From: Amphiscolops sp. MND2022
Lineage: Eukaryota
Reading direction: 5' to 3'
NCBI GenBank assembly: GCA_964187785.1
Contig: OZ076409.1
Location: 14,820,001 to 14,884,000 of the forward strand
Length of the DNA stretch: 64,000 nt
The position numbers were made by a program, and so were the translations under genes. Positions 35,869 to 64,000 of this stretch are shown in pieces (within the stretch, counting starts at the first letter, position 1; each line of letters begins with the position of its first letter). Under the pieces are notes generated by a model, which was given only the letters and a program-made list of their open reading frames with translations, had not been told where the DNA came from and ran no database searches.

Positions 35869-36467
35869 ATGGTGTACATCATAGGCGCAAGCGGACTCGC
35901 TGGATTGTTTCGAAAATTTTCCTATGCAGAAAAACGCCGGTACGGGCCAAAGATCTTCGCTGTGGGTGGCTTGAGTTTTAATCCAAAAGCAAACAACAGG
36001 TTGAAAATCTTACAAAATTTGCTTGGCAAGGTCCCCTGCGAGGTAGGCGGGACATTGTGAATTGACACGGGGTCATTAGCAACACTGTCGCTGCACATTC
36101 AACCAACAATTTCCAACCCTGTTCGGCCGAGGATCTTTTGCCCATACTTGCTGAGTTTAAAGACCGCATTGCGGCAATTTTATACCTGCAACGCACTAGT
36201 GAAAGGATAAACATCGTTCGAAAACTCTTCCAAAGTAAAATTTTGATTTTCGACGTTCGCAGACACCTGATATCCCGCCTCAAAAGGCAAAATAGTTCTG
36301 TCCAGGCCAATTTGGGGCAATTTTATCCTAGTGTACGTTGCGAAAAACGTCTTTTTGAAACAATCCTTCGCCATCAAAATAACCTTAAAAGTCTTCTCCA
36401 GTTCAGAGCAAAAACCAAACGCCTTTCAAAGGAGAGAAGAGCGAGACTGAAATCCAAAGTCTTGTAG
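35869..36467 (+). pseudogene. Accessory ORF of about 199 codons upstream of BEL gag, SGNH-hydrolase-like
   Basis: MVYIIGASGL...AVGGLSF, a frameshift near 36031, then RDIVN*HGVISNT...IAAILYLQR...ILIFDV...LGQFYPS and a basic tail. Confidence 0.55.
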
Positions 36468-36764
36468 AAAATAACTCACCTTTTGATAAGAGCGAATTAT
36501 CGATCCAGCCCGTTTTTTTTGTTTTTCTAGCGCCTTTCTATCTCTTGGTTGATTTCTGCCCCAACTCATTGGACACTAGACCGCCTAAGATGGTCGTGGC
36601 CTACCGAGTTGGGACTTGAGAATCATTACCTCCGCCCCTCGCAGTTTCGTTTTGGCTAGGTTCTCTCTACTCAACGGACAACAGACCGCTTAAGACGGTT
36701 GTGGCCTACTGAGTTGAGAGTCCTCGTTTTTTGCTCTTTTTTCGACTTTTTTTTGAAGCAAAAA

Positions 36765-39700
36765 ATGGAAGCGTGTGGTTCTAAACCGGAATCATTGCTT
36801 GAAACAGCTTCCAGGCTGTTCAAATCCTGTAATAGATTTGAGAATGAGCTCAGAAATACATATGAAGATCTCGAATCTGTGCTCACCTCTGATACCAAAC
36901 GAAAAACGAAGGTCGAAAGCCTTTTAGGACGCGCCGAAGAGAAGTTGCAAAAAGCTATTGCTCTTAACAACCTACTGAGAGACCTTGCCCCAAACACTAA
37001 TGATCGTCAGAAAACTATCGAAGACCTAGACCAATGGCTCCAAAATGCAATGGCTTGTCACGACAAAACCACGACAAGGGCTCGGGATTATTTGGACGGC
37101 ACTAGCGATAAGGCCACGGAAGATGCGGAATCTGTTCCGTCCCATAAAAGCATTGACTCACGCTCGCATAAAAGTTCACAACCTTCTTCACGAGCTGCTT
37201 CCATGACTTCTAGCCAACGGCGACGCGCCCTGGAGGCTACTAAGTTACGAGCTCAAAAAGCCGAACGTCAAACTGCAGCTGCGATGCAACTTGAAAAGGA
37301 CCGCTTCGACCTAAGACTGAAAGAAATTGCTGAAGAAAAACGCCGCAAATTGAATGAGCTAAAAATAGACGAAATGGAGTTAGCAGGTGATTCAAGTGTT
37401 GCAAATGATGTAAATTTGGCGCCTTTAGGTGTCAACGATGAGGATGGTGGCACTGGTAAGCTAACTGCGGTTTGGGTGCACTCGATCGTGAATCAGACCG
37501 AACGGGAGATGGGCGTTCCTCTCCCAACTGATGTCGTTTCCCCAGCGAGCCGTGCCTTAGACCAGGCTACCAGCTCTATCCTCGACAATGTGAAATCCAC
37601 TACTCACATTGAAGATAACCTGAATCAGTTTGCAGACAACGCGGCGACCGACCAATCCAATGTTATCGACAACACCATTGTGCCGTCACTTCAGCAACAC
37701 TTGAACTTTAACTCCGAAGCCGTGGCAGAACTGCGACCCAACGTCTTTGGTCCGACTGTCATCTCCACTTCGCATTCGCAACAACGTCCTATTTTTAATG
37801 GACAGTCTTCTCTTCTGACTAATTCGTTCGTTCCAAAAATGTCTCTTTGGGTGAATAACCATGCAGCCGCTACGACGTCCTCGTCTCTTACAACTACGCG
37901 GCCTGCTACAATCTTTACTGCTTGTATAAACACGAACGTCGTGTCAACAACTTCAGTTATTCCGCCGCGTGCACATGGTTCTGTTCATTATGAGAGCTCG
38001 CCCTTTCCCACACAAACGCTCATCTTACCGAATACTGGGCCAATATCCGCGCCAACAGGTCACCTTACTCCTTTCGCTGCCTCAACAATTAACATCGCTC
38101 AGCCCGGAGTCACAATGCAAAACTTAGTCGGAGCCTTGAAATCGAACCGCAAGGGCCTTTCCCGGAGTGGACACTTTCCAAGTATGACGGAGACCCGTTG
38201 TCATGGCATGAGTGGTCGGGTCAATTCAAGAGTGCGATCGACTCAGCTAACTTGACGGAGGACGAGAAACTCACCTATCTGAAGACTCTTGTGACTGGTA
38301 AAGCCAAATTAGCCATCGCTGACGTTGCGTACTCCGGACGGTTCTATAGAGATAGTCTGAAAACGTTAGAACGCAAATTTGGCCAGCCACGAGCAGACGT
38401 GGGTGCCTATTTTGATAAGTTAGCTAGTTACACACCTGTCAAAATACATAGTTTCGAACAAATAATTGATTTCGCGAATTTCATTGCAAGTATTATAGGT
38501 GTTTTCCGTTCACTGAACTACGAAAATGACTTGAGAGGAGCTGCTATGTTGAACCAAGCTGTTTACAAACTACCACCAAATCTTCGTGAGCAATTGTCCA
38601 TGCACACAGTAGTAAAAGACATGCTGCGACCTACGCTTATCGACTTTAACGATTGGCTCAAACGAAAAGCAGAAACCCATGAGCGAATGAACGTCTCAGG
38701 AACAAGCAAGCCAAAAGCCGAAGAAAGCAAAGTCAAAAGTAACAGTAAGTCCTTTTCCGCCACAGCAGCAGCTACCGGGTCCACTTTGTCCACTACTCCC
38801 AGGCATGCGCGACGGACCAACCCGGAAAGTGAATTTTTGCCCTGCCCGTGTTGCAAAAGCAAGCACCCATTGTGGAACTGTGATGAATTTAAGACGAAAA
38901 CACCTACACAGCGCGCGAAACTCGCCGCTGATAACAATTTCTGCTTTCGATGCGTGAATGGTGTACATAGAGCCAGTGAATGCGACAAGGACATACACTG
39001 TACATCTCCAGACTGTCAAAATCCACGGCAGCATAATACTTTGTTGCACGGCGCAAGTCGCATCTTCCCATTGCGTCAGAAAAAGTCTTCTTCACCGAAG
39101 TCGAATAAAACAGCTAGCGCTACTGTCTCGAGCGGTAGTAAGTCTACCTGTAGTTATGCCGCAACGGATATCGACACAAGGGGTCTTATACCTGTCGTTT
39201 TGGTGAACTTCTCCAATCGTTGTGGATCTGCGGAAGTCTTAGCTTTGTGTGATACTGGGAGCGTTTACTCTTGGGTATCTGACAAGCTAGCCAAATCATT
39301 GTCTCTCACCGGCTCTCCCTCGAAGGTTGCCCTCAGTGCCATTTTATCCAATCAAGAAGTCATAACCGAACGTGTTGAAGTTGTAGTTTCGTCCCTGTAT
39401 GCCGATCCTCCCTTTTCATTTGACCTTAAACCATTCACAAAATCTTTGACACTCGGAAAGGAGCTCATTGACATACTGGAACTACAAACGCAACATCCGC
39501 ATCTCGCTCCCATCCCTCCCATCGTTTATAATTACTCCGATATTCAGCTCATTATTGGTCAAGACGCGTATTACGCTATTCACCCAATTATTGCCTTCAA
39601 GGGTGACCCCATGAATGACCCGTGGGCTGTTCAGCTGCCGTTAGGGTGGGCTCTATGTGGTGCAACACCTGAGCGAACGTCCGCTTCGTTGTCTCCACGT

Positions 39701-42700
39701 GTTTTAAGGCTACTGTAGAAGATCTCTCATTGGCGGAACAGGTGAAAGCGTGGTATGACCTGGAATCTTATGAATCTTATGGTTCCTGCGTCCAAGCCGA
39801 TCCTCGCTCTGCTGCGGACAAGCGTGCAAACAAAATCCTCGAGGCAACCACCGTGCACGATGGAGAGCGATACTCAGTCGGCATGCCCTGGGCGACAGAC
39901 AACGTTTCGCTGCCTAACAATTACTACACTTCACTGGTCCAGCTGAAATCACTTGAACGGAGACTGGAAAAAAACCCAGAACTCAAATCAAATTATATCA
40001 ACACTGTCCACGATGATCTTCAAAAGGGTTGTGTGATCCCCGTTGGTGAGTTTAACCCCGAATGCCGTTCCTCACGAGATTGGTATTTGCCACATCACCC
40101 CATGGTAAACCCGAACAATCCGGGGAAAGTTCGACGGGTACTAAACGGGGCGTCAAAGTTTCATGGCAAGTCGCTGAATAGTTGCCTGTTAACAGGCCCT
40201 GATCTCTTGCAAGACCTGTTAAACGTCCTCCTTCGCTTCCGACAGTATCAGTATGCAGTTTCAGCAGATATTGAAGGAATGTTCCTTCAGGTCGGTGTGC
40301 CTCCTCCAGATCAAACAAGCTTGCGTTTTTTGTGGCGGGAGGACCCCACACAGAATGTGGAGACACTCCAGTACACGAGACACATTTTTGAAGCGAGAGA
40401 CTCGCCGACGTGCGCTAACTTTGCGCTTCAACAAACAGCTAGAGACAATGAAGCCACTTATCCTCTTGCCGCAAAAGCCGTCCAACAGAAGTTCTATACG
40501 GACGACTACCTCGACTCTGTTGAGTGTCCTGAAACTGCTTTGAAACTGAGTCAAGAGCTAATTGAAATGCTCAAACTAGGGGGCTTCAAGTTAACAAAGT
40601 TCATTAGTAACGTAAACGATTTATCCGAAACACTTGAACCGTCCGTTCCTGTCCCACAAGTTAAAGAATCAGTCCAACACCCAACGATCACGTCGCATGT
40701 TTTAGGTCTCAGATGGGATCACAAAGCTGACACTTTGAATGTGAGCCGAGGCGTTAAGTTGAAGGAAAATCGACCCAACACACAACGCACTGTGTTGAGC
40801 ACGGTCTCTGCCGTTTTCGATCCGCTGGGAATTGTCGCACCCTTTACCGTCGTTGCTCGCGTGCTCTTGAAAGATATTTGGAAAATCAAAGGGCAACAGT
40901 GGGACGATCCACTGCCCGAAGACCTCTCTCGCCGATTTAATGTTTGGTGTTCCGGACTACCGTAGCTTCAAGACTTAACAATCCCTCGCGCATATTTCTC
41001 TAGCCCAGTCGAAGAAATTGAGCTGCATTTGTTCGGTGACTGCTCCAAGGACATATTCTGCGCTGTAGGCTTCCTTCGAGCTAAGTGTCAAGGTTCAAAT
41101 ATTGCGCATTTGTCATTCGTAGTAGGCAAAGCACGTGTTGCGCCTATGAAACCAATAACAATTCCTAAACTCGAGTTGCAAGCTGCGCTCCTCGCTGCAC
41201 ACTTACGTCAGAAAATCCTCGGTGCAATAACTTTTGATGTGCCACAGTCTTTCATGTGGACTGATAGCAGCACAGTGCTTCAATGGCTTGCTTCGGCAGA
41301 TAAACAGCCTGTTTTGTTGCGAACCGCGTAGCGGAAATTTTGGAAACCACGACAATCGACCAATGGTTTCACGTTCCTACTGCTAATAACCCTGCAGATG
41401 CTGGAACGCGCGGACTCGCTGCAGCAGATCTTCCAAGTTTTTGTTGGGTGAAAGGGCCTAATTTCCTTAGAACATCCGACTGGCCGTTTGAACCGGAACC
41501 ATCTGCCATTTACACTATTAAACCAACGGAAACGTGTGCAACTGACGAATTACAGTCCAACTCGCTGGCAGCAGCGTCGCCGCCTAACTCCTCCGTCATA
41601 GCTTGGAGTAACTATAGTTCTTATCGCAAGCTAATCCGAATTGTCGCTTACCTTCTTCGGCTTTCGCCTCGTTACCGCCATTTTCGTTCCATTAATGGCA
41701 AAATTGAGGACCCGAGCGAGTTGGAGAATGCCGAAACGAAACTACTTTACTTGTTGCAAGTAGAGTCTTTTTCTAACGATCTTCTTGCCGCCAAAGGACA
41801 AAAGTCCGGCAAACTCCGTCTCCTATCATATTCCCCTTTCATTGGACCCTGATAAGTTGCTACGTTCACAGAGCCGACTGCGGCGTCTTTCAGACGTTGG
41901 GTACGACACCAAACACCCCGTAATACTTGATGGCAAACATCCTTTCGTCAAGTTAATGCTGATACATCTGCATCAAATGTACCATCACCTGGGCTTTGAC
42001 TACGTAAGAGCCCAAGTGGGCCATAAGTACATCATTCTGAAGAACCGCTCCATCCTCCGAACCATCCGCTACCAATGTATTCCTTGTCGAAAACGTGACG
42101 CCGTAATCGTAAACCCCATGATGGCAGACTTACCGAAAGAAAGGCTTGGTTATCTGGAACCACCCTTCAGTAACTGCGGGGTGGATTACTTTGGCCCTTT
42201 CTTTGTTTCTATTCGGCGCAGCTCGGAGAAAAGATGGGTGTTCCTGTTTACGTGTCTCACCACCCGAGCAATACACCTGGAAATAGTTAGTTCAATGGAC
42301 ACCAGTGCGTGCGTTGCCGGAATTGAACGCTTCATAGCTCGGCGAGGAATGCCCAATGTAATATGGTCCGACAATGGAACTAATTTTATCGGGTCCGAAA
42401 AAGAGCTCCTCGAGGTCACCCGTCGTTGGAATGACTACGCGCCAGCGGCACTCGTGTGTAAGGGTAATCGGTGGAAGTTCAATCCGCCCAGCGCCCCGCA
42501 TCATGGTGGGTCCTGGGAAAGAATGGTCCGGAGTTGCAAGAGAGTTTTCTACAGTATCCTCGGGAACCGTAGAATGACAGATGAGACTCTGAACACAACC
42601 TTTTGCCTGGTCGAACAAGCACTGAATAATCGCCCGCTGACGCCCGTTAGTGACGACCCGAACGAATTGGAAGCGCTAACGCCTAATCACTTCCTTTTAG

Positions 42701-43116
42701 GCCGATCATTCCAAGCATTACCAAGTCTAGTTCCGGGAGATGAACCAGATCTCCTCCGACGGTACACTAAAGCCCAAGCCTATGCCAACGCAATATGGGT
42801 TAGGTCGATGAAAGAATACGTACCATCGTTGCATAAGCGTGGTAAGTAGAACAAGAACTCTGATATCAGCCTGGAATCAGGGGACCTCGTGTGGGTTGTC
42901 GACAGTGCAAACCCACGAGGCTGTTATCCACTCGCTCGCACAACATCGTTGCGTTATGGAGCCGATTCCGTGTCCCGCTCCGCCGAGCTGCGAACTTCTA
43001 CCGGTTCACTTTTTCGTCCGCTGATCAAACTTCCTCCTGTCTTCGGGCCAACATCTTCGTTGGGGGCGGAGGATGTTGTTGACAAACAACATAAGCAAGT
43101 GACAACTAATGATTGA
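36765..43116 (+). pseudogene. BEL gag-pol polyprotein with several frameshifts and stops
   Basis: KLTYLKTLVTGKAK; three zinc knuckles (CPCCKSKHPLWNC, CFRCVNGVHRASEC, CTSPDC..HNTLLH); protease ALCDTGS; WYLPHHP, SLNSCLLTGPDL, ADIEGMFLQV, FYTDD; TIPKLELQAA; NPADAGTRG; integrase GVDYFGP, SDNGTNF, GGSWERMV, LTPNHFL. Confidence 0.95.
43062..43073 (+). promoter_or_regulatory. Polypurine tract
   Basis: GGGGGCGGAGGA immediately before the 3' LTR. Confidence 0.85.
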
Positions 43117-43373
43117 CAGCTCTTTTAGAGTATGAAACCCCTAAAACTAATATGATTGACAACAACTTTGACCTCTAACATAACAGGCTGGTATTTTCGC
43201 GTCTGGTTCGGACTCTGTTCAATAATAAAGCACTAAAAATCCTTTCATACGGAAATTGTAAACCTCATGTGCAGTAAAAACATACATGAAAACGATCGCT
43301 ATTTCTTTTGACATCATTAAAGCTTCAATATAATTCTTCGAGTTTTTTCTCCTTTTTACTGTCGTCAGTAAAA
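43074..43373 (+). repeat. BEL 3' LTR
   Basis: Direct repeat of 35044-35343, followed by TSD ACGGT. Confidence 0.95.
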
Positions 43374-48152: not shown

Positions 48153-49737
48153 TCAGATGGCCTAGCATTGACCTGCCGTGTTTGTATATGAAAACTAGCG
48201 GTACTCAAAGACTTGCTGAGAAAAGAATTTGAAATCCTTGCACACTCCTGGTAGTACTTTTTTCTTTTTTCTTCAATTATATAGTCTTTTGCACTCTTGC
48301 TCAGATTTTGTGTTGAGGTCTATGGATTGATAAAACGTGATATCGATCGAGACACTCTATCCAGCGTCCCAACATGGTTTGGTTCAATGAGTATTTCTTC
48401 AGCAACAATCTGGATAACATTCTTCTTGAAAGTGGAAAAAATTGGACAGTCTCTGTCACGTCTGCTCGATCTCTTCAGTTAACCAAGTTTTACGCCGCCC
48501 TGTGTTCTGCGCTCAGTACTGCGCATCGGTACCGGACACTGCTTGTTTCGTCACTTAGTGAAGACAACAAAAAGACTGTATCTTCACTTAGTGGGATCAA
48601 ATTGTGATATCATGTAGATATCATGACCTTCAAAACAACGAACCTAGACAGAGATCATACTATTGTTGTTAAACATAAAACTCTAATTACTGTCAATTTG
48701 AGTTTACTACATTTTGTGTTGTACAATAGATCATTGACCATTGTACTTGAGATTGATACCATAGATTAGTTACTGAAGAAGATACAAATTTATCGTCTTA
48801 GATAAAGAACCTTTTTACCGTGATAGACCGAGATTACAACATGGCGCAGTCAGCAAGATTTACTTTTATCCGTAAATTCAATTTTAACCTACCAAATACC
48901 AATGACGACGACCAAGAGTAATTTATTGCTACCATACCTCGAAGATACCGGACTCGATGGGAAAAAATTATACACCCCCAAAGAATGGACCGAACGATTA
49001 CGGCATTACATAAAACGATCCCAAATTAAACCTCTTCCTTGTAACGTAACACGTCCAACACTCCAGAAAGTGAGAGTAACTAACTTAGTCGTCCTTCAAT
49101 TGTGGCGAAAAGTCGAAAGATGTGAAGGAATGAATTGAGAACTAAAGTGGTCCTTAGACCTAGCTTGCATACAGCTTTGCAATCGGTTTGTGTTTAACTA
49201 GATCCAACTTACAACATTTAACTTTACAACTATTCGATAAATTTAAGATGAAGTATAAAAATTGACATTTTTGTGTATTATGATCGCTTTTGGCTATGTA
49301 AATAAACCTTATGGCGAGTCGTCAATGTCAGCTAGGTTGTTTCAAACGTTACAATTACACAAGGCAATTATTACTGATGTAAAGGCGTGGCATTTGCAGT
49401 AGCGCAATGGGGCTGATCACGCTATTTGAATGCCGAGTAAAGTGACCTTGTAAAGTACACCTATCAGGGTAAAAGTGCTCAAAAAAGAAGATGACCTTTC
49501 AACTTAGCCCAGGTATTTGTGGTGTTCCCCTGCAAACGTGTGCCCTGTTTCATATATGTATGAGTACCAATTTCCGAGAAAACCAATATGGAGGGGTTGA
49601 AGAAATGTGCGATTGTATGGCTTCAAAAATTCATGAATATTCATAAGCATTTTGATTTCTAACCATCATGATTGTACTCGACTTTAATCAATTGCGACTG
49701 ACTGGTACCTAGTTTCATTGTGGAAAATGGTTTCGTT
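48153..49737 (+). repeat. Copy A of a 1.58-kb direct duplication
   Basis: Matches 50687-52271 at offset 2534 with scattered substitutions. Confidence 0.95.
48603..49020 (+). mobile_element. 5' stub of an LTR retrotransposon: LTR 48603-48841, PBS and gag start
   Basis: TGTGATATC...TTACAACA followed directly by TGGCGCAGTCAGCAAGATT, then MTTTKSNLLLPYLEDTG...KEWTERLRHYIKR. Confidence 0.7.
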
Positions 49738-50686
49738 CTCAGCGATCATTATCCCACTGTGTTCAAATGCGCAGTGGTGAAGTAATCTGCCAAACCTGCA
49801 CTCTCAACTTGTTCATTTTCGTTTGATTCAACTGAACAGATTTCGTTGTTCCTTGCAGCATGGTCGGATTTTGAATTCCGGAGAATTTCCTCAGCCTACA
49901 TCTGTCGACCTTCCATTCTCATCTAATATTTGGAATTTAGCAAATCTCTATATTGAAAACGAGGCTGCAGGATAATTCGTTCTTTTCATCTTCTCTTTCC
50001 GAAATTGATCAAACACCGAAATTACTGATGAACCAAAATTGATCCGAAATACCACGCAGAAAACTTAAGGAAAAACGGAACGGCAAAGAAGGATTTCTGT
50101 TTATGTTTTGCGTTGGATAAAGTTTGTTTTCTGCTCAATGCTTCAGCTCAAAGCACGCATTACGACGCCAATCGGGGTTTTTTTTTCAAGAAAAGACAAA
50201 AGTCAGTTTTCGCACCTCCCAAAATGTGTTTTCGAGAATTCACAAAAATTGTACACTTCAACGAATCAGCAGCGCCGCCAAAATGATTGGAAAATTCACA
50301 CACTATTTTTCTTGAACACCCTTCTTGAACATGTTTCTGAAAAGTCTCTGGATTCTCTAACGCTTTCGGGCATCTTCAAACATTTTTTCGAATTCATCGA
50401 ACGCTTTCGCAAGTCTGGGAACTTTTTATTGAATTGAATAAATCGATGAAGAAACGAAACACTGATACACAAACTGTATTTGATTAGAACAAATTCCAAT
50501 GATAATTATGTTGTTTTGTGCAACATTGTTTTGTTTCATTTTTTGTTTCTAGATATTTCTTTGGTTTTAATTTCAAAAAACGAGGACGTTTTCAAAAAGG
50601 AAGGAAGTCTTGAATCTCCTGAATGACTGAAACTTGGATACCTCTCTACTTTAATCAATAAAAATCTGATTCTGTGATGAATTGTC

Positions 50687-52271
50687 TCAGATGGCCTAGC
50701 ATCGACCTGCCGTGTTTGTATATGAAAACTAGAGGTACTCAAAGACTTGCTGAGAAAAGAATTTGAAATCCTTGGTCACTCCTGGTAGTACTTTCTTCTT
50801 TTTTCTTCAATTATATAGTCTTTTGCACACTTGCTCAGATTTTGTGTTGAGGTCTATGGATTGATAAAACGTGATATCGATCGAGACACTCTATCCAGCG
50901 TCCCAACATGGTTTGGTTCAATGAGTATTTCTTCAGCAACAATCTGGATAACATTCTTCTTGAAAGTGGAAAAAATTGGACAGTCTCTGTCACGTCTGCT
51001 CGATCTCTTCAGTTAACCAAGTTTTACGCCGCCCTGTGTTCTGCGCTCAGTACTGCGCATCGGTACCGGACACTGCTTGTTTCGTCACTTAGTGAAGACA
51101 ACAAAAAGACTGTATCTTCACTTAGTGGGATCAAATTGTGATATCATGTAGATATCATGACCTTCAAAACTACGAACCTAGACAGAGAGCATACTATTGT
51201 TGTTAAACATAAAACTCTAATTACTGTCAATTTGAGTTTACTACATTTTGTGTTGTACAATAGATCATTGACCATTGTACTTGAGATTGATACCATAGAT
51301 TAGTTACTGAAGAAGATACAAATTTATCGTCTTAGATAAAGAACCTTTTTACCGTGATAGACCGAGATTACAACATGGCGCAGTCAGCAAGATTTACTTT
51401 TATCCGTAAATTCAATTTTAACCGACCAATTACCAATGACGACAACCAAGAGTAATATATTGCTACCATACCTCGAAGATACCAGACTCGATGGGAAAAA
51501 ATTATACACCCCCAAAGCATGGACCGAACGATTAGGGCATTACATAAAACGATCCCAAATTAAACCTCTTCCTTGTAACGTAACACGTCCAACACTCCAG
51601 AAAGTGAGAGTAACTAACTTAGTCGTCCTTCAATTGTGGCGAAAAGTCGAAAGATGTGAAGGAATGAATTGAGACCTAAAGTGGTCCTTAGACCTAGCTT
51701 GCATACAGCTTTGCAATCGGTTTGTGTTTAACTAGATCCAACTTACAACATTTAACTTTACAACTATTCGATAAATTTAAGATGAAGTATAAAAATTGAC
51801 ATTTTTGTGTAATATGATCGCTTTTGGCTATGTAAATAAACCTTATGGCGAGTCGTCAATGTCAGCTAGGTTGTTTCAAACGTTACAATTACACAAGGTA
51901 ATTATCACTGATGTAAAGGCGTGGCATTTGCAGTAGCGTAATGGGGCTGATCACGCTATTTGAATGCCGAGTAAAGTGACCTTGTAAAGTACACCTATCA
52001 GGGTAAAAGTGCTCATAAAAGAAGATGACCTTTCAACTTAGCCCAGGTATTTGTGGTGTTCACCCGCAAACGTGTGCCCTGTTTCATATATGTATGAGTA
52101 ACAATTTCCGAGAAAACCAGTATGGAGGGGTTGAAGAAATGTGCGATTGTATGGCTTCAAAATTTCATGAATATTCATAAGCATTTTGATTTCTAACCAT
52201 CATGATTGTACTCGACTTTAATCAATTGCGACTGACTGGTACCTAGTTTCATTGTGGAAAATAGTTTCGTT
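50687..52271 (+). repeat. Copy B of the duplication, cut at 52271 by an LTR
   Basis: Matches 48153-49737; includes the second LTR-PBS-gag stub at 51137-51555. Confidence 0.95.
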
Positions 52272-52580
52272 GTCGAACCCATGCTGTTGGGCCGGCTTTG
52301 AAGGACCTTTTGAGCTAGACGGCTGAGATTCGTTATTATTCTTGCTTACTATCGCCATCATTAAGTCCTTCAGTTGACTAAACTCCTGGTGTAACTCGTT
52401 AATTCGGCGTTCATAACTTTCTTTTATTTCAGATAACTGAGAAGAGATATCTGAATTGTCGTTGGTGTCAGAATCATTTGAGTTTGCCTGAGCCATGTCT
52501 GGATCTGTTGGAGAAGATGTTTCTGACGAAGAATTTATGACTCTACCGCTCCTAAGTTCGGTACCTTGATCTGGGTTCAT
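52271..52580 (-). CDS. ORF start inside the LTR (probable gag N-terminus, coiled coil), open across the LTR end
   Basis: MNPDQGTELRSGRV...SQLSEIKESYERRINELHQEFSQLKDLMMAIV...QHGFD; LRSG is a common gag N-terminal motif. Confidence 0.55.
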
Positions 52581-54190
52581 GTAGCCGAGAGAAAAGAATT
52601 ATGAGTGAAGACTGGATTATTTGAGATGCTATTCGATGTATTTTACTGATTTAAATGGCTATTCGATCTCAAAATTCACTAATCTGAACTGAGATGTTTT
52701 AGAGATGAAGTCGTACAAGCAAGTAAGTCGTTAGGTGAGAATAAGGAAATTAGCAAGGTAGTTAGGAAAGTTCATCCAATTTTCATCGCAATCGTAGATG
52801 CACCAAGGAAATTACTCAGTTTCAGTTCTATAGTTTCTGAAGATGAAATAGAGATATATTTTCAAGTAGATTTTGGCGTGAACTATTCAACTGGATGGTA
52901 GCTTGTCGCAATTCGGTCTGAGTAATCGCTAATGGCGGTCCAAATTACAGCAGTTCACGTGTCTTTTCGGTTGGTAAGACGCTAAATCTCTTACCAACCT
53001 TCTCTCATTGGCTGTTACCAGCTGGTGTTAAAATGGTAAGTCACGTGACCGGTGTTGTGAACTGCCGCAAAGTGGCCACGCATCATGGTACATCTACATA
53101 TGTTAATGGTGTTTAGTCATCAATTTACAATGTCGCAATTGCCTGCACGCAGCATCATGGTTTCTATAGCAACTAAAATTAGCTCAAATCATTCAATAAC
53201 GCACTAATTTCAAGTCAATTTAAGATAAAGCACGATTCGGGATTGGAAAACGATGTTTTCCGCTGATTCTAGCGCCAAAACCAATGATTTAAAAATTGAA
53301 GATGGAAATGCGATGAACTTGTAAGAATATTTGCTGATTTTCAAGTCTAGTTTAGCTCTGGATGAAAATGCGATGAATGGTGGTCTTTCTCGCTCGAAAA
53401 TCAACACAATTTAAACTGACGATGATAAAAGGATGAACTCCACGTATAATTTGCCAATTTCCAGCACAGATTAAAATGACGATGAATTCGGGATGAATTC
53501 AGTCGATAAACGCTAATTCTAGCACAATTGAATTTTTGGCGATGGGTTTAAGATGAACTTGTCAGTTAAAACAGCAAATACCAAAGCAATACAAATTGGC
53601 GATGAGTTTAGGATGAACTCACCAGTTAAAACACCGAATACTAAGGCAATTCAATTTAGCGATGAGTTTAGGATGAACTCATCCACTAAAATGGTTAATT
53701 ATCAGCACGAACGAAATCAAGATGAATTAAGGATGGGTTTACTAAACAAATCAGATAACCAGCACTTTCACTCTTTTTTAGGATGGATTAAGGATGTACT
53801 TTCTCATTTCCCTTCTACGCTAGTGAATACGATGATTAAAGGATGAATTACTGTCCTTTAAGTAATGAGAAGCACATTGAAATTTCTTTACATGAAATAC
53901 AACGATGAATTTAAGATGAAATTACTAAAATAAGGTCCCATAAAATCCGCTGATGGATTAGTGATGAAAAGTCAGTTTAACGTCCCAATCGTTGTTCATA
54001 TGCAATTCCGGAGATGAAATTGCGATGAACTTCATTCAAAATAGCTCTAAATTGAATCCGCTGATGGATCTAATGAATTTATCAGTCAATTCGGGTTCAT
54101 CGTTAAGTCCGCTGATGGACTAGCGATGAACTTCATGAAAGTGTTGTCACGACTACAAGTCCTGAGGCGGGGAGCTAGTAGAAGTTAACA
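52271..54190 (-). mobile_element. Putative long (about 1.9 kb) LTR, probably the 3' LTR of a large Gypsy element
   Basis: Minus strand reads TGTTAAC...GGTTCGACA and is preceded by purine tract AAGAGAGACGAAA; it abruptly interrupts the duplication. The 52271 end is firm; the 54190 end is less so. Confidence 0.6.
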
Positions 54191-55057
54191 TTTCGTCTCT
54201 CTTGTATCTCTCGGTCCAGTTTGACCCGAAAAACTTCTCTCCCTTGTCGTGACAAACCAATATTTATGAAATATAGCACATTCGAGACTATTTGGCAAGA
54301 TCATTTATGCGGACACCGGAACTAGAGCGCTCAGTATTAAGTAAATATATATAACTCAAACTCATGGGGGAATGGGGATTAAGTATAAGTAACGTAGGGT
54401 TGCTCACAACCATGGTTCTTATTATTTGACATCATATTGCCCATATCTAAGTACATAAGACATAATATTTACATTACAGATATTTAGTAGATTATATTTC
54501 CATCATGCTGGCATGACACTCCTCGGGACGGGATTTGGACTGAGAGTGCAGGGGCCAAATGTGCAGAGGATGGTTGTCTCGGCGTTGGCTTCGACTGTTT
54601 CCTTCGTTTGGTTAGGGAGAAAATTGATCCTTCGTTAGTTCTGAATTGGCATTTCCTTCGTTTGTTCTGTCCTGTGTAAACCTTCTCTGAGAAGAGGACT
54701 TTCGGCAATCGTCATATCTGGCTTCATGCTGGGTGATTTTGGTTATACTGTTTCGACGCGGCAACTCTAGTTCTTGGCCCATCGAATGTCCGCTGATCTG
54801 CATTTTATTGGTTGTCATGCTTTTGATGGGAGTTTCGGCTGGTTATTTTTCGGTAGAAGCTGATTTCTCGGAGAAAAGTTTCCCTCCAAAACGCCTACAC
54901 TGAACAAACAATTCGACTAACCTCATTGACAAGTTGGCAGCGAGTCGGGGATGAATGAACGATAAATTGTTTACACAGCGAGACATCGATGTTGATTTAG
55001 CAGACGACTGGCGCCGTTGCTCTACTATCAGTTTTCGCGATAGGAAAGAGATGAATT

Positions 55058-55157
55058 GTTGTCATAGCAACCGTTGAAGCTACTTCCGCTGTCTGACTTC
55101 TCAGCGATGAGAGAGAGATGAACTGTCGCCATAGCAATCACTGCTAAATCTGATTGG
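55058..55157. promoter_or_regulatory. Two RFX X-box-like motifs and a CCAAT box upstream of the antisense gene
   Basis: GTTGTCATAGCAAC (55058-55071), GTCGCCATAGCAAT (55125-55138), ATTGG (55153-55157). Confidence 0.5.
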
Positions 55158-55660
55158 CTGAAAACTGAATTTTCTGAACTGGAGGAGATCCAACCGGTCA
55201 TCAACAAACAGTCTCATCCTTGAATCATCTTTCGTCAAGTCGGTTTGAAAATCGCCACGATTTCCTTTGCGCGTTTCCGCTCAACTTCATCGGTATTGAT
55301 CTGAGACTGGCAGCTGTCATCAAAATCAAATACTTGAAGCTTTTGTAGTCAAATTCTCGGGGGTGATTCATTTTCAGAGAAAATTGTCAAGTTGGTTGAA
55401 CTTGGAAGAAAAGTGTAGGCAGTCATTGAAATCGGAGAGTTTTCATCGAATTTTCATCTTCTGAATTTCAAGTATTTGGTTTGTCCTGGCACTCAAGCTG
55501 CATTCGCGCTCTTTGAAATTTTCCGTGAATTTGTATCTCGCAATCATGGTTGATCAGACCATTTAATTACTGATCAAATTCTTGTCCTCAGATTCTTCGA
55601 TTTCGTTCCTTTCTTCACTCTCTTCCGTTCCTTTTCAGATTGTTTTGCAAACCTACAGCG

Positions 55661-58600
55661 ATGTCCGACATCCACTTTGTTTATTCTCTTCCAGAGACTG
55701 AAGCTACAGAAAGTAAGTGCACTATTTTTCTTTTCTTTCACAAACGGGTTAGGGAACAATTAGGTACTGAAGGCGCGTCTTGGTTTTAGCGGACTCAGTT
55801 CACTCTGTCGGCGTCATTTCTGAGCTGACTACCTTGCAGACCGTGCTGCCTCAAGAGGCTCCTGAAGTTCAAGCAGCAGCTCCCGTACCTCAGTTTCAAC
55901 CTGATCAACCGCTTGGTCAGGCTCCCAACGTCCCGTACCTTCCGCAGTGTAAGTTCTGTCCTTCCAGATCTTCAATTCAGTCTACCATCTCTTCATTTCT
56001 CATCTCTGGTCCCTTCAGATGTTGACTCTTTCCGTTTGATGTTTAGATCACTATCCTTGGTATGCTTCCCTCGGTAGCATCACCTTCGGGTGGTATGATC
56101 GCCACATGCGGGACATGCTACGAGATAGCATCCAGCAGTATAGTGAGTTGACTCCTTTTCAATTTCCGTCAGTACTAAGGCATCGTCCGGACACTCCGAT
56201 GTAATTCCGATATAAACATCTCATCTGCATGTAGTGCCCTTCGCGGTCGATTACCTATAAAATTCTTTTTTTAAAATGAATTTAGGATGTGTCATGGACG
56301 TTCACAGTCCTTCGTGACTGATTCACTGCAAATTCTATTTTTGAAGATGATTTTTAGATGAATTCTTCTCCGGTCTTCTTTCTTCGCGCGGCGTACGCGC
56401 TCGTTCTTCTCCAATCGTCGTCATCTGATTACTGTTTCTTCTTTCAGGCCCGACTCCCATCCATGCGCCAAGACCTCGTCCTATTTCCTACTCAGTGGGT
56501 ATAGGGACGAGTGATTTTGGTGCATCCCAGATTGATGCCGGCACACAAGTGCGCCTCCTCCCTTGGAGATGTCTTCTTTTCTCCAGGACCTCTGTTTGGA
56601 TGCAGTTAGCTCTCCAGTGGCACGTGCCCCAGTGTCGGTGCTTTCGCCGAACTTTCAGCGATTCCTGGACCGCGAGTCAGCAATTCGAAGTCCTCCTCCT
56701 CCTCGCGTCACTGTAGACGCAGGAGTCAGTGCCGTCGTCACTCCTGTGGATGTGGCAGTCGATGCCTGCGTGGCTGTTGTTGACCAGTCCATTCAGGCCG
56801 TTGTGGAAACTGGCGAGACTTCCACGGATTACGATCCTCCTGTGGAAACTCTTTCGGCTGCTCCCTCTTCGCCAGCTGCTAGTGTCCCTGAAATTGTGGA
56901 GGCTGACGTTGAGCAGTCTGACGTGCCATCAACTGACAGCACTGAGACCCTTCTTGAGGCAGTCGAGGATGTCCCTGCTGGTGATTCTCTGTCCGCTGAG
57001 CCTGCTCCGGAAGGTGCTGTTCCCGGTCTGGTTCCTGTGTCTGCTGAGACGTCTCCCATGGGACCCAGTCTGGTGGACTCCGACGACGAGCCCATTGCGT
57101 CTCGTTTACCAGGTTACCTAAACAGCTTTAACCCTGTGAAGTATCTGATCGGTAGCTTTTATTCATTTCTTTTTTCGTTTACACTTTCACTAGCGTTTTT
57201 TACGTCTTTCTTCTTTTCCATCTATTTTCCATCGTTTTTATGTTTTCGCTATATGGTTTTCTGCAGTTTTTCATCACTTTCTCATCGTCAAAAGTCTTGA
57301 ATATAGCGTTTTTCTTTTCTGGTCATTTTTTAGAACTTTCCATCTCTTTTACATCCTTAAATTTTTTCGTTCGTCTTTTAGCTATTTTTCGTCGTTTTCT
57401 TTTCAGTTTACATCTCTTTTTCATCGTTAAGTTTTTTTCTTCGTTTTCGCTTATATTTCCAATGAAAATATTATTTTACATCATGTTTTCATCACTCCGG
57501 GTGAACGTTTTTGATTTTTACGTTTTACTTTTGCATTTTTCGATTTTGCGGATGTGTGACGGATGATTTTAGTCGTTGTCTATGATGATTTGTAATGATG
57601 TTACTTTTGTTCTAGTGTTTTGTTGTGATCATCAGGAAGGAAGGTGATCAAGTCCGGATGGTTTGATCATCCATACTGCGGTCTGGCGCTAGGATATGCA
57701 CGCAATCACGAGTCGCGCATGTCCTATGTGCGATGCCTAATGTGCAAGAGAGACGTTAAGGTGGGCAGCCGAGGCATTACCACCTTTATGGAACATTGCC
57801 GAGGACTGCGTCATCACCGTCAGGATTGTGTGATCCGTTTACACCGTGGGCTTCCGTTGCGGCGACGTGATGGAACGCTCATGACGAATGAAGAGAGCGC
57901 CGAGTGTCGTGTGAACTTAGGTGGGGTGACTGTACCCTTCATTGAGACCTGTCCGTCACTCAGTGTTTTGGAAGTATTAGAACTGGAGGGGGCTGGGCAG
58001 CCAGTGTGGGGAGAAGACGAAGAGGGGGAAGACTGGCCAGAAAAGACTGTGCGCTTGTTTGTATGCTTCGTGGTCGACGCTCTGTACCGCGATTGTCAAT
58101 TTAGTGGAGTTGCTAATTTGTGGGAAGTGCTGGTGTCGTCGGATCCCCAACATGCGGTCTTGTTTGGGCCAACTTGCGCGTTGTCCGACGTGATGGTGAG
58201 AAATTTGATTTTGCGTTTTCTGTTACGTTCGATATAGTATGGATTTTCTATTGTTTACTATTGAAAAGGAGGGTGGGGGGGGCGGTATAATATTATGATG
58301 TATGGTTTCGAAAGACCTTATGTTGATTTTAGAGCGTTGTTCTGCTTGGCTTGTGGCCGTACGTAATGCGGAGACTGATTACCATCTGGAGCAATAGTGA
58401 GTACAGCAGTTTCCATCTGACAGTGACTGGTGGGCGAGTGACTGGTACGGTTACAGTGTGTGGCATGGACGGAGTTAGTCACTACACTGTCTTCTGCTTC
58501 AAAATGGCTCGTGACTGGGAGGGTCGAGTGATCACTTGGCTGGTAAACATGTGGTGTTGTATGCTCGGAGAGCCTGTTCCACTTGGACTGTGCTGTGATG

Positions 58601-60219
58601 CGTTGCCGCAGCTGAGTGGACTGTTCCGAAGCACCACTGGGGTTGGCCTCGTGGACGTAAAACCCTTCACATTGTCGGATGTGAGTCGGACGATCGTGGA
58701 TGTGGCTGGTCAAGTGCTTGGTGGGACTGATATCCATGTGGTTCTTAACCATCTTCAGAAGCGCTTGAAAGGATTCGTGAAGGATCCTTTGCTGTTGGCG
58801 TGTCCGCATTTGCTGCAAGTACGTATGATTTCATGATGTGATGGTATCTATGTGTAGTAACGTGTGAACGGAGTGTTGAGGGGGGGTTTGTATTGAACTT
58901 CATAATGTATGCAGTTAATTAATATGATGTTATTTACAATTTAGGCGGTTCTTTCTGGTGAGGTATTTGTGTGGACGCTCGCTGATGTGTGCGAGGAATT
59001 GAGGAGTAACCTGGCTGACATTGTGTGTCTGTGGCGATTTGCCAGTGGAGATGGACCATTGGACACACTTGACCTGACCTTGCGAGCAGAGATTGGGATT
59101 CCAATCAGGCTACAGGCGCTCAGTCTAGTTTACCGTGCTCGTTAGTAATTGTTATATTCCTGGTGGAGTCTTGTCGGGTCACTTCTAGATGGGCTATTGT
59201 GGGGTTGTTATTTTCGTTTGAGTGAGGGGGGGGGGTGGTCATACAAGTTGCATGTGGAATTTATTGTACCTTAATGTTTCAGTGGTGAATTCCTACGAGA
59301 AGAGTTTTGGTGCCTCTTCAGTACGCAGTTGTTACTGGGCGTTGGAAAGTGCCAGTTTCATAAGAGAACTGATGTCGACTCTGGATGACGATGACCGATT
59401 GCCAGCAGCATCGGACACGCGTTCCGTTTGTTCGTGGACGTGGAGAGTTATGCCATCTCCGAGGTTAAACAACAAGTCCTGATTGACAGTTTTCTTGCCA
59501 ATAATGAAGTGGATGTGGGCGGATGTCTTTATGATGAAGATATGTCCCGAGTGCCAGTCTTCATTCTGACTGTCGTGAAAAATGTCAGCGCATTGCCAGG
59601 AGTCCGGGATGATGTGTCCTTTGTTCGGAGTGTGTTTAGTCTCCCAAGTCTCAATATTGTTCCTGAAGATGTCCTATTGGCCGAAATCCGGGTATTTACG
59701 GATCTTCTTGTTGAGTTAGGCCGAATCTCGTATGCAGAGCAAGGACACATGGAACGTGGCTTCCTGGAATTCATCAGTAACTATCGACGTGGTTCTGGGA
59801 CGACCGGAAGTGCGATGAATCTGTCGGTGTTGGACCTCCTGAACTATTGTACTAATCGAGGTGCCCAGAATTTATTGCGAAGTATATTTTGCTTGGACGG
59901 AGGCATTCAGAGTAACAATACTTTGTTGTGTGACGGAGTTGGCCATTTAAGCAGCGACGTAACGAGTGGTGTATGTGCCATTATAGTGAGCTATCTTTCT
60001 TCCAGCAGTATTCGGAGCTATGAAAGTGTGAGTGGTCCTCTTCTAGACGAAGTTGCAGAGTCACACCGGCGCTTAGTCGATCTCAACGAGCTGACCGAAA
60101 GTATGTTGTGGGACGACATTGGGATTGTGGCTGGCGAAGATTATAGACTGCGCTTATATTCAAACCTGGGGTACAGCATAAACGGGGAGCGGGCTGCTAG
60201 TCCAGAAATTGGTGTTTAA
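55661..60219 (+). pseudogene. Multi-exon gene, lightly frameshifted, encoding an acidic/Pro-rich N-terminus, a BED-like zinc finger and a hAT-transposase-like body
   Basis: Phase-compatible exons 55661-55712, 55790-55948, 56019-56142, about 56358-56392, about 56449-57112, 57636-58195, 58333-58818, 58945-59140, 59283-60219. Motif VRCLMCKRDVKVGSRGITTFMEHCRGLRHH. Apparent frameshifts near 56040, 56550 and 59420. Confidence 0.7.
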
Positions 60220-62872
60220 CGCCTGTACTTAGTTCACGTTTATTTGAAACTGTTTTATCTTTCATGTTATTTTGTTTTACTGTATGTTATAGTATTGTAT
60301 CTAGCAAATGGGTGACCAATTTATATGTCGCATAAAGTGACATGAGAGGAAAAGAAGAAATGCGCTGCGTCGGAAAAATCGGCAGTGTACTATGTACAAG
60401 TTAAATATTTGGCACCCGAAATTGTTTCTCTCTTGAGTTAATAGTGAGTGGGAATGCAGGTAGAGTTCAGTTAGTTTCACACTGGTTAAGTTCGTTTGGT
60501 AGGTTGCGTCAATCGGCGGCTCTGTGTTTTCATTGGTCATCGCTTTCACATCACTTTTCAGTTGATAGAATTTGTAGGAGACTTTTGTCATGTTGTTCAT
60601 CGTTATTACATCTCGTGTAAATGTAGTTAGATAATCAGTGCTTCGTTTTGATTTTTCATCTCATTTTCATCACGTTTTCCTCAGTCGGCCGAGCGACGTC
60701 GCGAAAACTGTTTTTCTCATCTTTTTTACATGGCTCGTTATATGTGAATCAGTGCATGTTGTTACATGTGGGTTTTCTACATAGATCATCGTTTTTTCAT
60801 CTTGCGTTTTCATTTTATCATTTTGGCGAGTTATTTGCTGTAGTTCATCGTTTTTGCATCGCAAGTTTTGACTTGTCGAATTTTTGCTCATTTTGCTGCA
60901 TAGTTCATCTTCTTTTCATCGTAATTTTGGAAAATGTTTATTTTGCGTGTTTTCGTGTTTAGTTTGCTATAACGTAATCGAGGATTGCGTCTTTTATGGT
61001 GGATGAGGGCATTTTATCAATTTTGCGGTGGTTTCGGAGTGTTTTCTTCATGTATTTTAGTGTTAAATGGTGTTGATCGTTTGTCAGGTTGTCGAGATTG
61101 CATGAATTTTAGTGTACATGTGTTATACTCATTTTCGTTGCGTTTCGGATTTGTCATAGTTTGAACATCATTGCATGAATCATTTTTTCGGACTCTTGTG
61201 ACCGCCGCTCGCGTGGCAGTCGAAGAGATGTTCACTCAGCAATGGTATTGGTACCCCGTAGGCGTGCAAGGTACTTGAGGTACCAATCCAGAGCTGGGTG
61301 AGTGGAGCTGCTCCGCTCCTTTCAGATGAATGAAATCTTTCGGATTTGAGCTATATATAGTCTTCATGTTTTTTTTACGGTCGGTTGTTTGTCATCAGAC
61401 GTCGAAATGGGTTTGTCCATTTGACGTTTAATCTGATCAATCAGGGTGATTGACATCTACGGCTTTGCATGTTTCGAATTTTTAAAGTTTGTGATATTGT
61501 GTGGTTTCATGTTCGCGTGTTTTCATAATGTATTCCTTTAAATGGGTTGCCCCATTATTGACATGTTGTTATATGTTCGGTGTTAGTTTCATGTATTTTA
61601 ATTTGGTGTTTTTATTTTCGTTCATTTGGACAGGGATTTGTCGTCACAAAGCCCCTACAAAACTAACTGAGAATCCACTAGCCGCTGGATAACCAACGCA
61701 GCAAGCTTCATCCGAATATGGTTGTGAGCTCCCCGGCTCAACTAACCAGCACTCTTTTCAGAGAATTGCCAGCCAGTACGAAGAAATGTTTTTGGCTTTT
61801 CGATAGGGGTATTTTGCTTGTTATGAACTGATGTTTACTGGGGGGGCTCACTCCTTTCTTCGTTTTGTGGTTGTTTCGTCAGTTCTTATATTTTGCATGT
61901 AAGTTAGTAGGCTTCATGTATTTTCGATTGTTTGTTTCATTTTTATTCGTCTAGGTTTGTATGGCGTTGGTGTGAATTGCATATATTATCTCGTTCATTT
62001 TTAAACGGTACATGTATATTTCCGTGTGTTGCTCATTTGTATTGCATGTAGTTTAGATTTGTCAATTTCTTTCGTGACGTCATTGATTTGGCAGGTCTTT
62101 GAACCTTACATGTATTGATCATTTCATTTTTGTGTGGCATAATTCTATTTGCGTGATTCGAAATAAAGTCGGCTGTTTTTATCGTTTCGTGGAGTTACAT
62201 GTTGTTTGGGAATTAGCTGATTTATTGTGATGTTATGTGGATGGTGTTTCCCATCACAAGGAGGTTTTCGTAAGTCATTTAATATTTTCGAACTTCCATT
62301 TAGACTAAATTCATCGTTTTGACATCCTCCAGCGAAGCTAGAGTATCGTGTCAGGCTGACGATAAATTCGATCACGATTTGATGGTAGTTTCCATCACAA
62401 ATTCATCTCATTAATTGTTTTCATGTAAGTTCTGAATAATTGAATCGAGTTCATCGCTAATTCATCCTCTAGCCGAGCTAGAGTATTATGATAGCATGAA
62501 CGTGAGTGCGTTCGCATTCTGATGGCATTTTCCATCTCCAATGCATCGCTAGTAAATATTGCATGTTGATTGGTCAAATTTTTGACTAAGTTCATCACTT
62601 TTTCATCTCTCGTGTGTCTGAGATAAATTTTCATGTGATTTCATCCTTTTTCATCTCAAAATTTTTATGTGTTGTTTTTCTGGTTTTTTGGTCGTTTTTC
62701 ATCCGTTTTACATCGTGTTTCGTCTTTTTGCGTATTTCATGTAGTTTTAAGTGATTGTTCATCTATTTTACATCTTCATGTTCGTTTTAAGTTGAAATTG
62801 CATGTAATTGACTCGTTTTTGTGAATTTTCATCCGTAACTCATCGTGTGTTTAGAAATGTGGTTTTTCATGG

Positions 62873-64000
62873 CTAAATCGTTACGTTTACTTTGTTGGTC
62901 TTTCTCAGTGCGTTTCTAGCTGCAGTAATCTCATGAATGAGGAAATCAGGATATGTTTTCGGTGTAGGGTTCTCGCGTAACCTGTACCTACTCTGATTGT
63001 TTCTAGACGGTCTAGAACTCATCCTTCCCTCATCTTCAGTTTGCGTGTTTGTCTGTTGTGATTGATTTTCGTGTTGTTCGTCTCTCAGAGGTACTCTTAT
63101 CCTACTTTCATCGCGGGGGGGGGCGGTAGAATAATTTCCTCTTGCGTTCCAAATCTAACTGTAGGTGGTCTAAAGTTGTTGTGGTCAGTTTCTACTTGCT
63201 GATAGTCTATTCTCGTGGTTATTTCTGGTGGAATTACTTGTGGACTGTGTCGTTCTTGTACCTGCGGAACTATTTCTTCTGAAGGCTCTTCTTCGACTAA
63301 GTCTTGATCTAGATTGTCATTCTCATTCTGATCTACTTCGTCGGAATATTCGAGTCGAAAATGTCCGTGTCTTCAACCCTTTCAGTGTCTTGGTAGAGAT
63401 GTTTGGACACCTTGATGTCATCAATCGGAAATTCCGGTTTGAACAACCTCAGTCGCATTCTGTGGACGCACTGAGTCTGGTGTGTGCCTACTTTGCGGAT
63501 GATGTAGTTGCTATCGGATAGCACTTTCATCACCTTGTACGGTCCTTTCCAATGGAAAGTTTTAAACTCTTCTTTGCTTCTCTGAGAGTCGTACTTAGGA
63601 TCTAGTAGGAACACAAATTCATTCACCTTCAGTGGCTGTGCTCGTGCTTTTCTATCATAGTACATTTTGTACTTGTGATATGTGGAAATGATGTTATCTA
63701 GATTGTCTCTGAAGATGAAGTTCATTTTGTCTAGAATTTCATTCACGTCCTTGCACTTTGTTTCAGCCGGCTTGTTTGCGTTTCGGAATTGCAGATCTAG
63801 TGGGTTGTATGGTGTTCTGCCGTGGAAAATTTCAGTTGGTGAACATTTCAGTGAATCATGATACGTTGTGTTATGGGCCATGATTGCTATGTCGACATAG
63901 TGGTCCCATTGTGGTCTGTCTGCGTTTACACTAATTTTAAGGATCTTTTTCAGTTTCGCGTGCGTTCTCTCCACCATGCCTATTGTCTGTGCGTGCTTTA
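62873..64000 (-). mobile_element. Ty3/Gypsy integrase C-terminal half and tail; the element continues past the window
   Basis: HAQTIGMVERTHAKLK, WDHYV..AIMAHNTTYH..LKCSPTEIFHGR, WKGPYKV (GPY/F), VHRMRLR. Stop at 63333, then a tail with RYRLRENPTPKTYPDF. Confidence 0.92.

Follow-up and report, generated by a model that had tools for sequence, protein, structure and literature searches.

A spliced antisense gene of probable transposase origin carried by a Ty3/Gypsy retrotransposon family of Amphiscolops sp.

Here, we describe a Ty3/Gypsy long terminal repeat (LTR) retrotransposon of 19,126 bp on the minus strand of contig OZ076409.1 of Amphiscolops sp. MND2022 (GCA_964187785.1), the 3' part of which lies in the 64,000-nucleotide stretch analysed here (positions 14,820,001 to 14,884,000; hereafter the window). 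Between its integrase and its 3' LTR, in a space occupied by no env, the element carries a cargo gene of eight coding exons and seven introns on the plus strand, antisense to gag-pol. We are close to certain that this is one element bearing a selected, spliced antisense gene that is found throughout its family. The product, about 1,050 amino acids long in the window's family, probably descends from a hAT transposase, as judged from predicted structure. Our leading interpretation, to which we give a probability of roughly 0.45, is that this captured and catalytically dead transposase acts on motif arrays of its own element as a self-regulator, in the manner of VANC and TnpA in plant DNA transposons.

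The element and its antisense gene

An earlier note on the window had proposed that a minus-strand Gypsy integrase ending near 62873, an opposite-strand gene with about eight introns and an LTR form a single element, and this is supported by matched LTRs, a 5-bp target-site duplication (TSD) and a tRNA-type primer binding site (PBS). An Integrase_p58_C domain is found at that end, with rve and H2C2 domains besides, and extension of the contig to the right, as the note had advised, recovered reverse transcriptase (RT), gag and a partner LTR, followed by TTCGT and then by the expected continuation of the host unit (99% match to window 49732-50688). Position 52271, thought to be an element end that cuts a host duplication cleanly, is the true LTR end. 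The LTR is longer than the proposed 52271-54190: this unit, the first 1,920 bp of the LTR, has a partner copy 16.9 kb to its right and at least 41 matches at 90-100% identity, many paired 13-22 kb apart (40 scored of 1,639 candidates in a genome of 1.07 Gb), and flank comparison extends the repeat 328 bp past 54190, to 54518. The TG at 54190 is therefore internal and recurs in the 5' LTR, as does the purine tract AAGAGAGACGAAA to which the note had pointed. The two LTRs are 98.6% identical (26 mismatches and one 5-nt gap). All three points that had been listed as threats to the proposal came out in its favour, in that an upstream LTR is present, the cargo is multicopy and linked to integrase, and a solo-LTR reading of 52271-54190 is ruled out by the LTR pair and the TTCGT duplication. 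The element was also called giant; it is large (19.1 kb), but its internal region of 14.6 kb falls short of the 20-kb internal region that defines 'giant' elements in the part of PMC6431247 available. Its features, in window or window-equivalent positions, are as follows.

48153-52270: tandem duplication of host DNA, unit about 2.53 kb, with the element inserted in the second copy
52266-52270: TSD TTCGT, 5 bp; second copy past the 5' LTR, outside the window
52271-54518, minus strand: 3' LTR, 2,248 bp, TG...CA
52271-52580, minus strand: first ~100 gag codons, inside the LTR; in the 5' LTR the frame runs through the PBS into gag
53200-54190, plus strand: array of GATG-N7-GATG(AA) in the LTR, 16 per LTR, 15 of them on the plus strand
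53536-53715: degenerate 60-bp repeat within the LTR array
54519-54535, minus strand: polypurine tract (PPT) position, where the plus-strand primer of the window's family is short and atypical
55639-55712, plus strand: cargo exon 1, with the conserved acceptor just ahead of 55639 and 52 coding nt from the ATG at 55661
55790-55948, plus strand: cargo exon 2, 159 nt
56047-56142, plus strand: cargo exon 3, 96 nt
56448-57112, plus strand: cargo exon 4, low-complexity and rich in Ser, Pro, Asp and Val; frameshift near 56540 in the window copy
57636-58195, plus strand: cargo exon 5, 560 nt; BED-like zinc finger and helical region
58333-58818, plus strand: cargo exon 6, 486 nt; predicted RNase H-type domain
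58945-59140, plus strand: cargo exon 7, 196 nt
59283-60219, plus strand: cargo exon 8, all-helical, 938 nt in other copies; frameshift near 59420 in the window copy
57450-60550, plus strand: exchangeable cassette, from the second half of intron 4 to about 300 bp past the stop
60220-62870, minus strand: non-coding 3' region; longest stop-free frame about 120 codons, no env-sized open reading frame (ORF)
62873-64000, minus strand: C-terminal part of integrase (IN), end of pol; frameshifts in the window copy
64001-71401 (contig 14884001-14891401), minus strand: rest of IN, RNase H (RH), RT, protease (PR), gag, PBS, 5' LTR and second TSD
69154-71396: 5' LTR, beyond the window

The cargo gene model was built by hand on one young copy, where the eight coding exons give 1,057 codons and one terminal stop. 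A polypyrimidine-AG acceptor is conserved shortly 5' of the ATG in 12 of the 12 copies shown, and probably marks an extra intron in the 5' untranslated region; seven coding introns and this acceptor agree with the eight or so introns first suggested. A 126-nt exon 3 and an apparent frameshift in that exon were dropped in favour of the 96-nt exon, which fits the copies better. Splice sites were compared across 25 elements, leaving 317 of 350 sites testable (33 were dropped for a deleted exon, a frameshift or a low score, and 14 come from the reference copy); GT or AG stands at the exact position in 314 of the 317, as against 0-23 when the position is shifted by 1-3 nt. Exon lengths are near-fixed at 52, 159, 96, ~670, 560/563, 486, 196 and 938 nt, and intron lengths vary, with 96 of 152 not multiples of three.

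Cargo of a retroelement is expected to lose its introns, yet here seven or eight are retained, and copies with LTRs 99.7-100% identical still have every intron mapped in them. Such retention would follow if introns lying antisense in the genomic RNA escape splicing, as the earlier note had proposed, a step that we infer. In the scenario that we favour, a Ty3/Gypsy lineage would long ago have acquired an intron-containing gene in antisense, the genomic RNA would be made from the other strand so that the spliceosome does not see the introns and they are copied intact, and the cargo would be expressed as a separate spliced transcript, whose structure we derive from comparison of copies. No intronless copy of the gene was seen among 141 scored matches to exon 8, where the longest exon-8 frame is 384 amino acids. 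A 603-amino-acid open frame at C9:51.89 Mb was considered as an intron loss and rejected, as ~510 nt still separates exons 4 and 5, in frame.

Family spread, selection and cassette exchange

The earlier note had also suggested a search of the genome for other copies with the order integrase, cargo, LTR, and the cargo proves to be family-wide. At least 150 matches were scored for exon 5, and among 21 loci picked solely by a cargo match, for each of which 17-25 kb was retrieved, integrase lies downstream in opposite orientation in 19; the remaining two are an 8.6-kb two-LTR element without gag-pol and a locus with one LTR and cargo but no pol in range. A distant homologue (representatives search, 87 hits) led to a second Gypsy family in the genome, with LTRs of 1.1-1.2 kb, an overall length of 15.2-15.4 kb and the same type of PBS. 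Its RT is 62-64% identical to that of the window's family (53-56% for one broken copy), and its IN 57-59%. A homologous cargo gene lies in the same place and orientation in this family, although its first exons differ. The counterpart of exon 5 is 563/566 nt long in 24 of 25 loci, that of exon 6 is 489 nt in 22 and that of exon 7 is 211 nt in 23, where splice sites were sought within 15 nt in frame and six of the loci are near-identical. Introns 4-7 match between the families in both position and phase, despite exon 6 being only 12-19% identical, and on this comparison the intron-bearing cargo has been carried since before the two families split. Two homologues in ENA match the genome at no more than 34% and no more than 48%, respectively, which makes it probable that other species have the gene as well. 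No relatives appeared in scans of JGI metagenomes and IMG/VR, and longer-protein searches with one exon 5 and with an exon-5 alignment, a weak test, gave no match.

Within the window's family, cargo exons have median ratios of nonsynonymous to synonymous substitution (dN/dS) of 0.06-0.31, compared with 0.065 for RT and 0.11 for IN (13 elements). These values come from pairs with dS of 0.1-2 only, namely 7 of 78 pairs for exons 5 and 8, 15 of 55 for exon 6 and 22 of 78 for exon 7, and by this measure the cargo is under purifying selection. Selection of this kind, together with an exon structure fixed across two families ~37% apart in RT, speaks against the cargo being a passenger, that is, a nested DNA transposon or host gene that rides along or serves the host. 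Several copies have indeed lost parts, as would suit a passenger: the 8.6-kb element lacks exons 7-8 and the window copy is frameshifted. This copy is also broken in gag-pol, however, and all 21 cargo-selected loci are in LTR-element context, so we regard the passenger explanation as largely refuted and very improbable.

Parts of the cargo are far older than the elements that carry them. Three copies that are mostly 93-99% identical to the window elsewhere contain an unalignable block at ~57.45-60.55 kb, which still encodes exons 5-8 (with a frameshift in exon 8 in one of them). Among 13 elements, RT and IN are 93-100% identical, whereas identity falls to minima of 56, 44, 35 and 36% in exons 5 to 8, and RT dS is 0.03-0.23 in pairs whose exon 5 is saturated at synonymous sites. 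Trees of 12 elements are incongruent, each of three well-supported cargo clades mixing both backbone clades, and about nine deeply diverged cargo types are found on these two shallow backbone clades. As read from these alignments and trees, cassettes are recombined between elements. Old versions of exons 5-8 would thus be reshuffled onto a young gag-pol backbone, presumably by template switching, and would persist under diversifying selection, with host silencing or rival copies perhaps as the adversary. A block at 57430-57505 in intron 4 that looks conserved between diverged copies, at the left border of the cassette and among six motif sites, may be a crossover site or an internal promoter.

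Such diversity is what would be expected of a self/non-self or counter-defence factor, involved in copy-number control, subtype exclusion or antagonism of silencing, with alleles under frequency-dependent selection like the interference groups of retroviral env. The number of deep cargo types, the sharp borders of the cassettes and a divergence that is greatest in exons 7-8 (minimum 35-36%) and, of exons 5-8, least in exon 5 (56%) all fit this explanation. Usable pairs give no sign of positive selection (dN/dS at most 0.52, with most exon 5-8 pairs saturated), and the motif arrays described below are left unexplained. We consider it unlikely as the whole account, though it can coexist with a regulatory role.

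Protein domains and motif arrays

The cargo protein was compared with known domains exon by exon. Exon 5 encodes a finger of the form Cys-x2-Cys...His-x5-His (Cys33, Cys36, His53, His59), with BED ligands kept in 31-33 of 34 rows; zf-BED is matched by 8 of the 34 exon-5 members (best E 0.0016), and Atlas leads at 0.81-0.83 include zf-BED clusters. The exon-6 model (52 sequences, mean predicted local distance difference test score of 58) has the order helix-b1b2b3-a-b4-a-b5, an RNase H topology. Its top match among 48,161 chains is the hAT transposase Hermes (Z 5.3, root-mean-square deviation (rmsd) 3.8, 99 residues), with model residues 1-108 superposing on Hermes 152-263, and in a second fold comparison Hermes chains take ranks 1-5 (Z 4.9-5.6). 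Over both comparisons, with Hermes first, Z is 5.3-5.6, rmsd 3.8-3.9 and 96-99 residues are aligned. The hAT hypothesis had been recorded from the domain layout before exon 6 was folded. A catalytic Asp is not conserved at the ends of strands 1 and 4, and CxxH is absent, in 19 exon-6 rows (DDE positions were assigned from predicted strands, on which the Glu position was not located), so that the enzyme would be dead if it is hAT-derived.

Several results weigh against a hAT origin. The Hermes match is weak, its Z lying within one unit of unrelated chains and below the guide value of 8, at 4% identity, and Foldseek on the exon-6 model gave no hit at E <= 0.001, with RNase H and glucokinase ranked first. 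Profile-profile comparison (hhalign) with a shallow 10-sequence hAT alignment from this genome was not significant, a hidden Markov model search against hAT ORFs of the genome gave a best E of 0.009, on a BED finger, Dimer_Tnp_hAT was matched by 0 of 22 exon-8 members, and two fold searches with the exon-8 model were uninformative. On balance, we favour descent from a hAT transposase, with some reserve. Atlas with exon 8 and a search of PDB sequences returned nothing usable, and inverted repeats, sought at lengths of 40 nt or more, were absent from 52-64 kb.

The non-coding DNA of the element is rich in one short motif. The LTR contains 19 copies of GATGAA, against a mean of 1.5 and a maximum of 6 in 300 shuffles, and the 3' region contains 19 copies of the complement, against a shuffle mean of 2.8 and maximum of 9. 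The longer site GATG-N7-GATG is found 44-76 times per element in 11 of the 11 family elements counted, with any other spacing occurring at most 6 times; host DNA has 2 in 44 kb and 1 in 86 kb, and the second family 0-2 (4 elements). Outside the LTRs, the window copy has 15 sites in its 3' region, of which 14 lie on the minus strand, in the orientation opposite to that of the LTR array; intron 4 holds 6 more, gag-pol 7 and exons 5-8 a single one. In 8 of 8 diverged copies, half-sites are 93-98% conserved versus 74-89% for spacers, and the flanks are also less conserved. A second enriched word, CATGT/TACATG, lies at 61700-62870; CATGT is present 23 times in 60220-62870, where shuffles reach at most 15, and the word is likewise high-ranking in non-coding DNA of the second family.

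We propose that the cargo protein is a catalytically dead hAT-type transposase that retains its BED finger and fold and would act as a nuclear, oligomeric DNA-binding factor recognising the GATG-N7-GATG arrays of its own element, where half-sites are 11 bp apart, about one helical turn. Binding would keep cognate copies active or unsilenced. CpG transitions between LTRs are ~4 times as frequent as other transitions (44 of 3,148 versus 153 of 45,422 sites), and the host therefore probably methylates these copies. We hold more tentatively, and rather doubt, the fuller version in which a whole hAT gene was domesticated as a dead regulator binding LTR arrays, with ancient alleles shuffled in an arms race with host silencing, amounting to VANC-like anti-silencing in what is probably an animal retroelement. 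In that version the arrays possibly descend from subterminal repeats of the hAT element, which would explain why they run in opposite directions to the left and right of the gene.

Other observations count against this proposal. Motif sites were picked in the window copy, which may inflate their apparent conservation. The motif is the same in all cargo types, though exon 5 spans 56-98% identity, so changing DNA specificity does not explain the allele diversity. The second family has a different, palindromic ACTG-N7-CAGT motif, found 7-9 times in each of 4 of 5 elements and once in the fifth, and these are mostly two LTR copies of the same few sites. Finally, CpG observed/expected is near 1, indicating mild methylation.

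BED fingers bind DNA or chromatin, and would also suit an accessory of the particle or of integration, such as a tethering or targeting partner of integrase or a factor for nuclear import or RNA export, with the arrays as unrelated host-factor sites or RNA signals. Array density peaks in the LTR, a place where one would expect host factors to bind, the motif is unchanged when the cassette is swapped, and a regulatory or import role has been proposed for plant antisense ORFs (PMC7264820). We think this less probable than self-regulation: the arrays extend to intron 4, the 3' region and gag-pol, their spacer is strictly 7 nt and their orientation differs between the two flanks of the gene, and a tight integrase partner is a poor fit when integrase remains 93-100% identical while exon 8 drops to 36%.

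Replication signals, neighbouring sequence and related systems

The gag gene, which has two CCHC knuckles, is followed by PR-RT-RH-IN in that order. Frameshifts interrupt gag, pol and cargo exons 4 and 8 of the window copy, and its longest minus-strand frame between IN and the LTR, where a sense-strand env was looked for, has 170 codons. Thirty-one elements were examined, of which 26 have both LTRs within the fetched range and 24 of these have a 5-bp TSD; in the other two, gag or PPT-like sequence lies past the LTR, which seems to be shared with an adjacent element, as in tandem arrays. LTR pairs are 90-100% identical, indicating spread both old and recent. In both families the gag frame opens within the LTR and is read through the PBS; each 3' LTR or solo LTR therefore points the first gag codons into host DNA. 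The PPT is atypical just above 54518 in the window's family, and a canonical purine run in the second. A PBS starting with TGG adjoins the 5' LTR in 10 of 10 close copies, that of the window being 3 nt shorter, and its primer we take to be tRNA-Leu from general tRNA features. The window has no whole tRNA gene that could be found, and ARAGORN and Rfam detected none at two PBS-like loci. A 23-letter PBS pattern running into tRNA plus CCA has 18 matches in the genome (control 0), which suggests recurrent primer read-through; in one of two inspected, a 46-nt tRNA 3' half lies directly after the LTR end. Another match is just upstream of a different gag-pol. Such a stretch, 46 nt of tRNA 3' sequence including CCA, follows the 5' LTR of the 8.6-kb element (G000:C2:1968001-1985000), whose LTRs are 99.8% identical and which has a TSD but lacks gag-pol and cargo exons 7-8.

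The host duplication at the insertion site pairs 48153-49740 with 50687-52274 at 98% and resumes past the element, and a family member at another locus is inserted directly at a ~53-bp satellite array. Elsewhere in the window are exons of a host choline/carnitine acyltransferase (4129-15514, minus strand), with a BED-containing hAT-like remnant between them at 12100-12894; a 1.5-kb element resembling a miniature inverted-repeat transposable element or foldback element (17778-19290, inverted arms of ~350 bp, 95% identity); frames resembling the RT and endonuclease of long interspersed nuclear elements (20610-28142, with a 1.5-kb tandem duplication at 20671-23592); and a BEL/Pao LTR element (35036-43373, LTRs of ~300 bp at 96% identity, with a 23-bp tandem repeat at 35363-35572).

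An antisense ORF located between pol and the 3' LTR is already a known feature of plant Retand/Grande and fungal Boty elements; its origin and function are called unknown and descent from another transposon not demonstrable, and in Grande it has its own promoter and a nuclear protein, for which DNA binding and a regulatory role are proposed (PMC7264820; PMC11963269, in part). Like the Retand/Tat elements (Grande gene23 and the ORFs of RIRE2 and Retand, the latter TRP28) and Boty, the element described here has a family-wide antisense ORF and a long 3' region. Unlike them, it has 7-8 spliceosomal introns in its cargo, introns being nowhere mentioned for theirs in PMC7264820 or in the part of PMC11963269 available, as well as a BED-like finger, a predicted RNase H-type domain and swappable alleles, whereas theirs have plant or fungal hosts. 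Pfam scans of the cargo exons turned up no TRP28 (PF04195). Spliced antisense RNA beginning in or near the 3' LTR is also described for Arabidopsis Copia, and is reported as non-coding (bioRxiv 10.1101/2024.04.02.587720, in part), in contrast to a cargo that encodes ~1,050 amino acids under purifying selection. Planarian Burro and plant Ogre share long LTRs and extra coding capacity, although Burro has its extra domains in or beside a huge polyprotein, with antisense unmentioned in the text available (PMC6431247, in part), and the 19-kb element of the window has an ordinary gag-pol. Compared with hAT elements such as Hermes, the cargo has the BED-like finger, helical region and, by prediction, the superposing RNase H-type domain, but it has no conserved Asp or CxxH and no detectable Dimer_Tnp_hAT, has an added low-complexity N-terminal part, and resides inside a Gypsy element.

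The closest functional parallels are VANDAL/VANC, in which an accessory protein is paired with a family-specific short motif that is dense, in one orientation and in non-coding parts (PMC5735166, in part), and Spm TnpA, which is reported as a transposase descendant, dead or split transposases acting as regulators in plants (bioRxiv 10.64898/2026.08.24.746577, in part). As in these systems, an element-encoded accessory protein is accompanied by family-specific motif arrays in the element's own non-coding DNA. Theirs are plant DNA transposons in which binding and demethylation have been shown, whereas ours is an LTR retrotransposon whose protein would be the binding partner of its arrays and for which no likeness to VANC was noted, no search having been aimed at it. 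Extra ORFs, giant elements and accessory proteins are described, without an intron-rich antisense gene, in the available parts of PMC5408684, PMC6431247, PMC13317346, PMC12786077, PMC8220671 and PMC13547354. Our literature search, which did not extend to Repbase-type entries, supplements and most subscription papers, found no intron-rich, transposase-derived antisense gene in an LTR element.

Deep intron retention, a probable transposase origin and cassette exchange are thus what this family adds to known antisense ORFs, and a probable DNA-transposon source is offered for a class of antisense accessory genes of unknown origin. Old cargo alleles on a young backbone point to selection outside the basic replication cycle, and the candidate target motif makes the function directly testable. 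LTR retrotransposons are not, to our knowledge, generally known to carry their own DNA-binding regulator. If the cargo is such a regulator, sequence-specific anti-silencing would extend from plant DNA transposons to retrotransposons.

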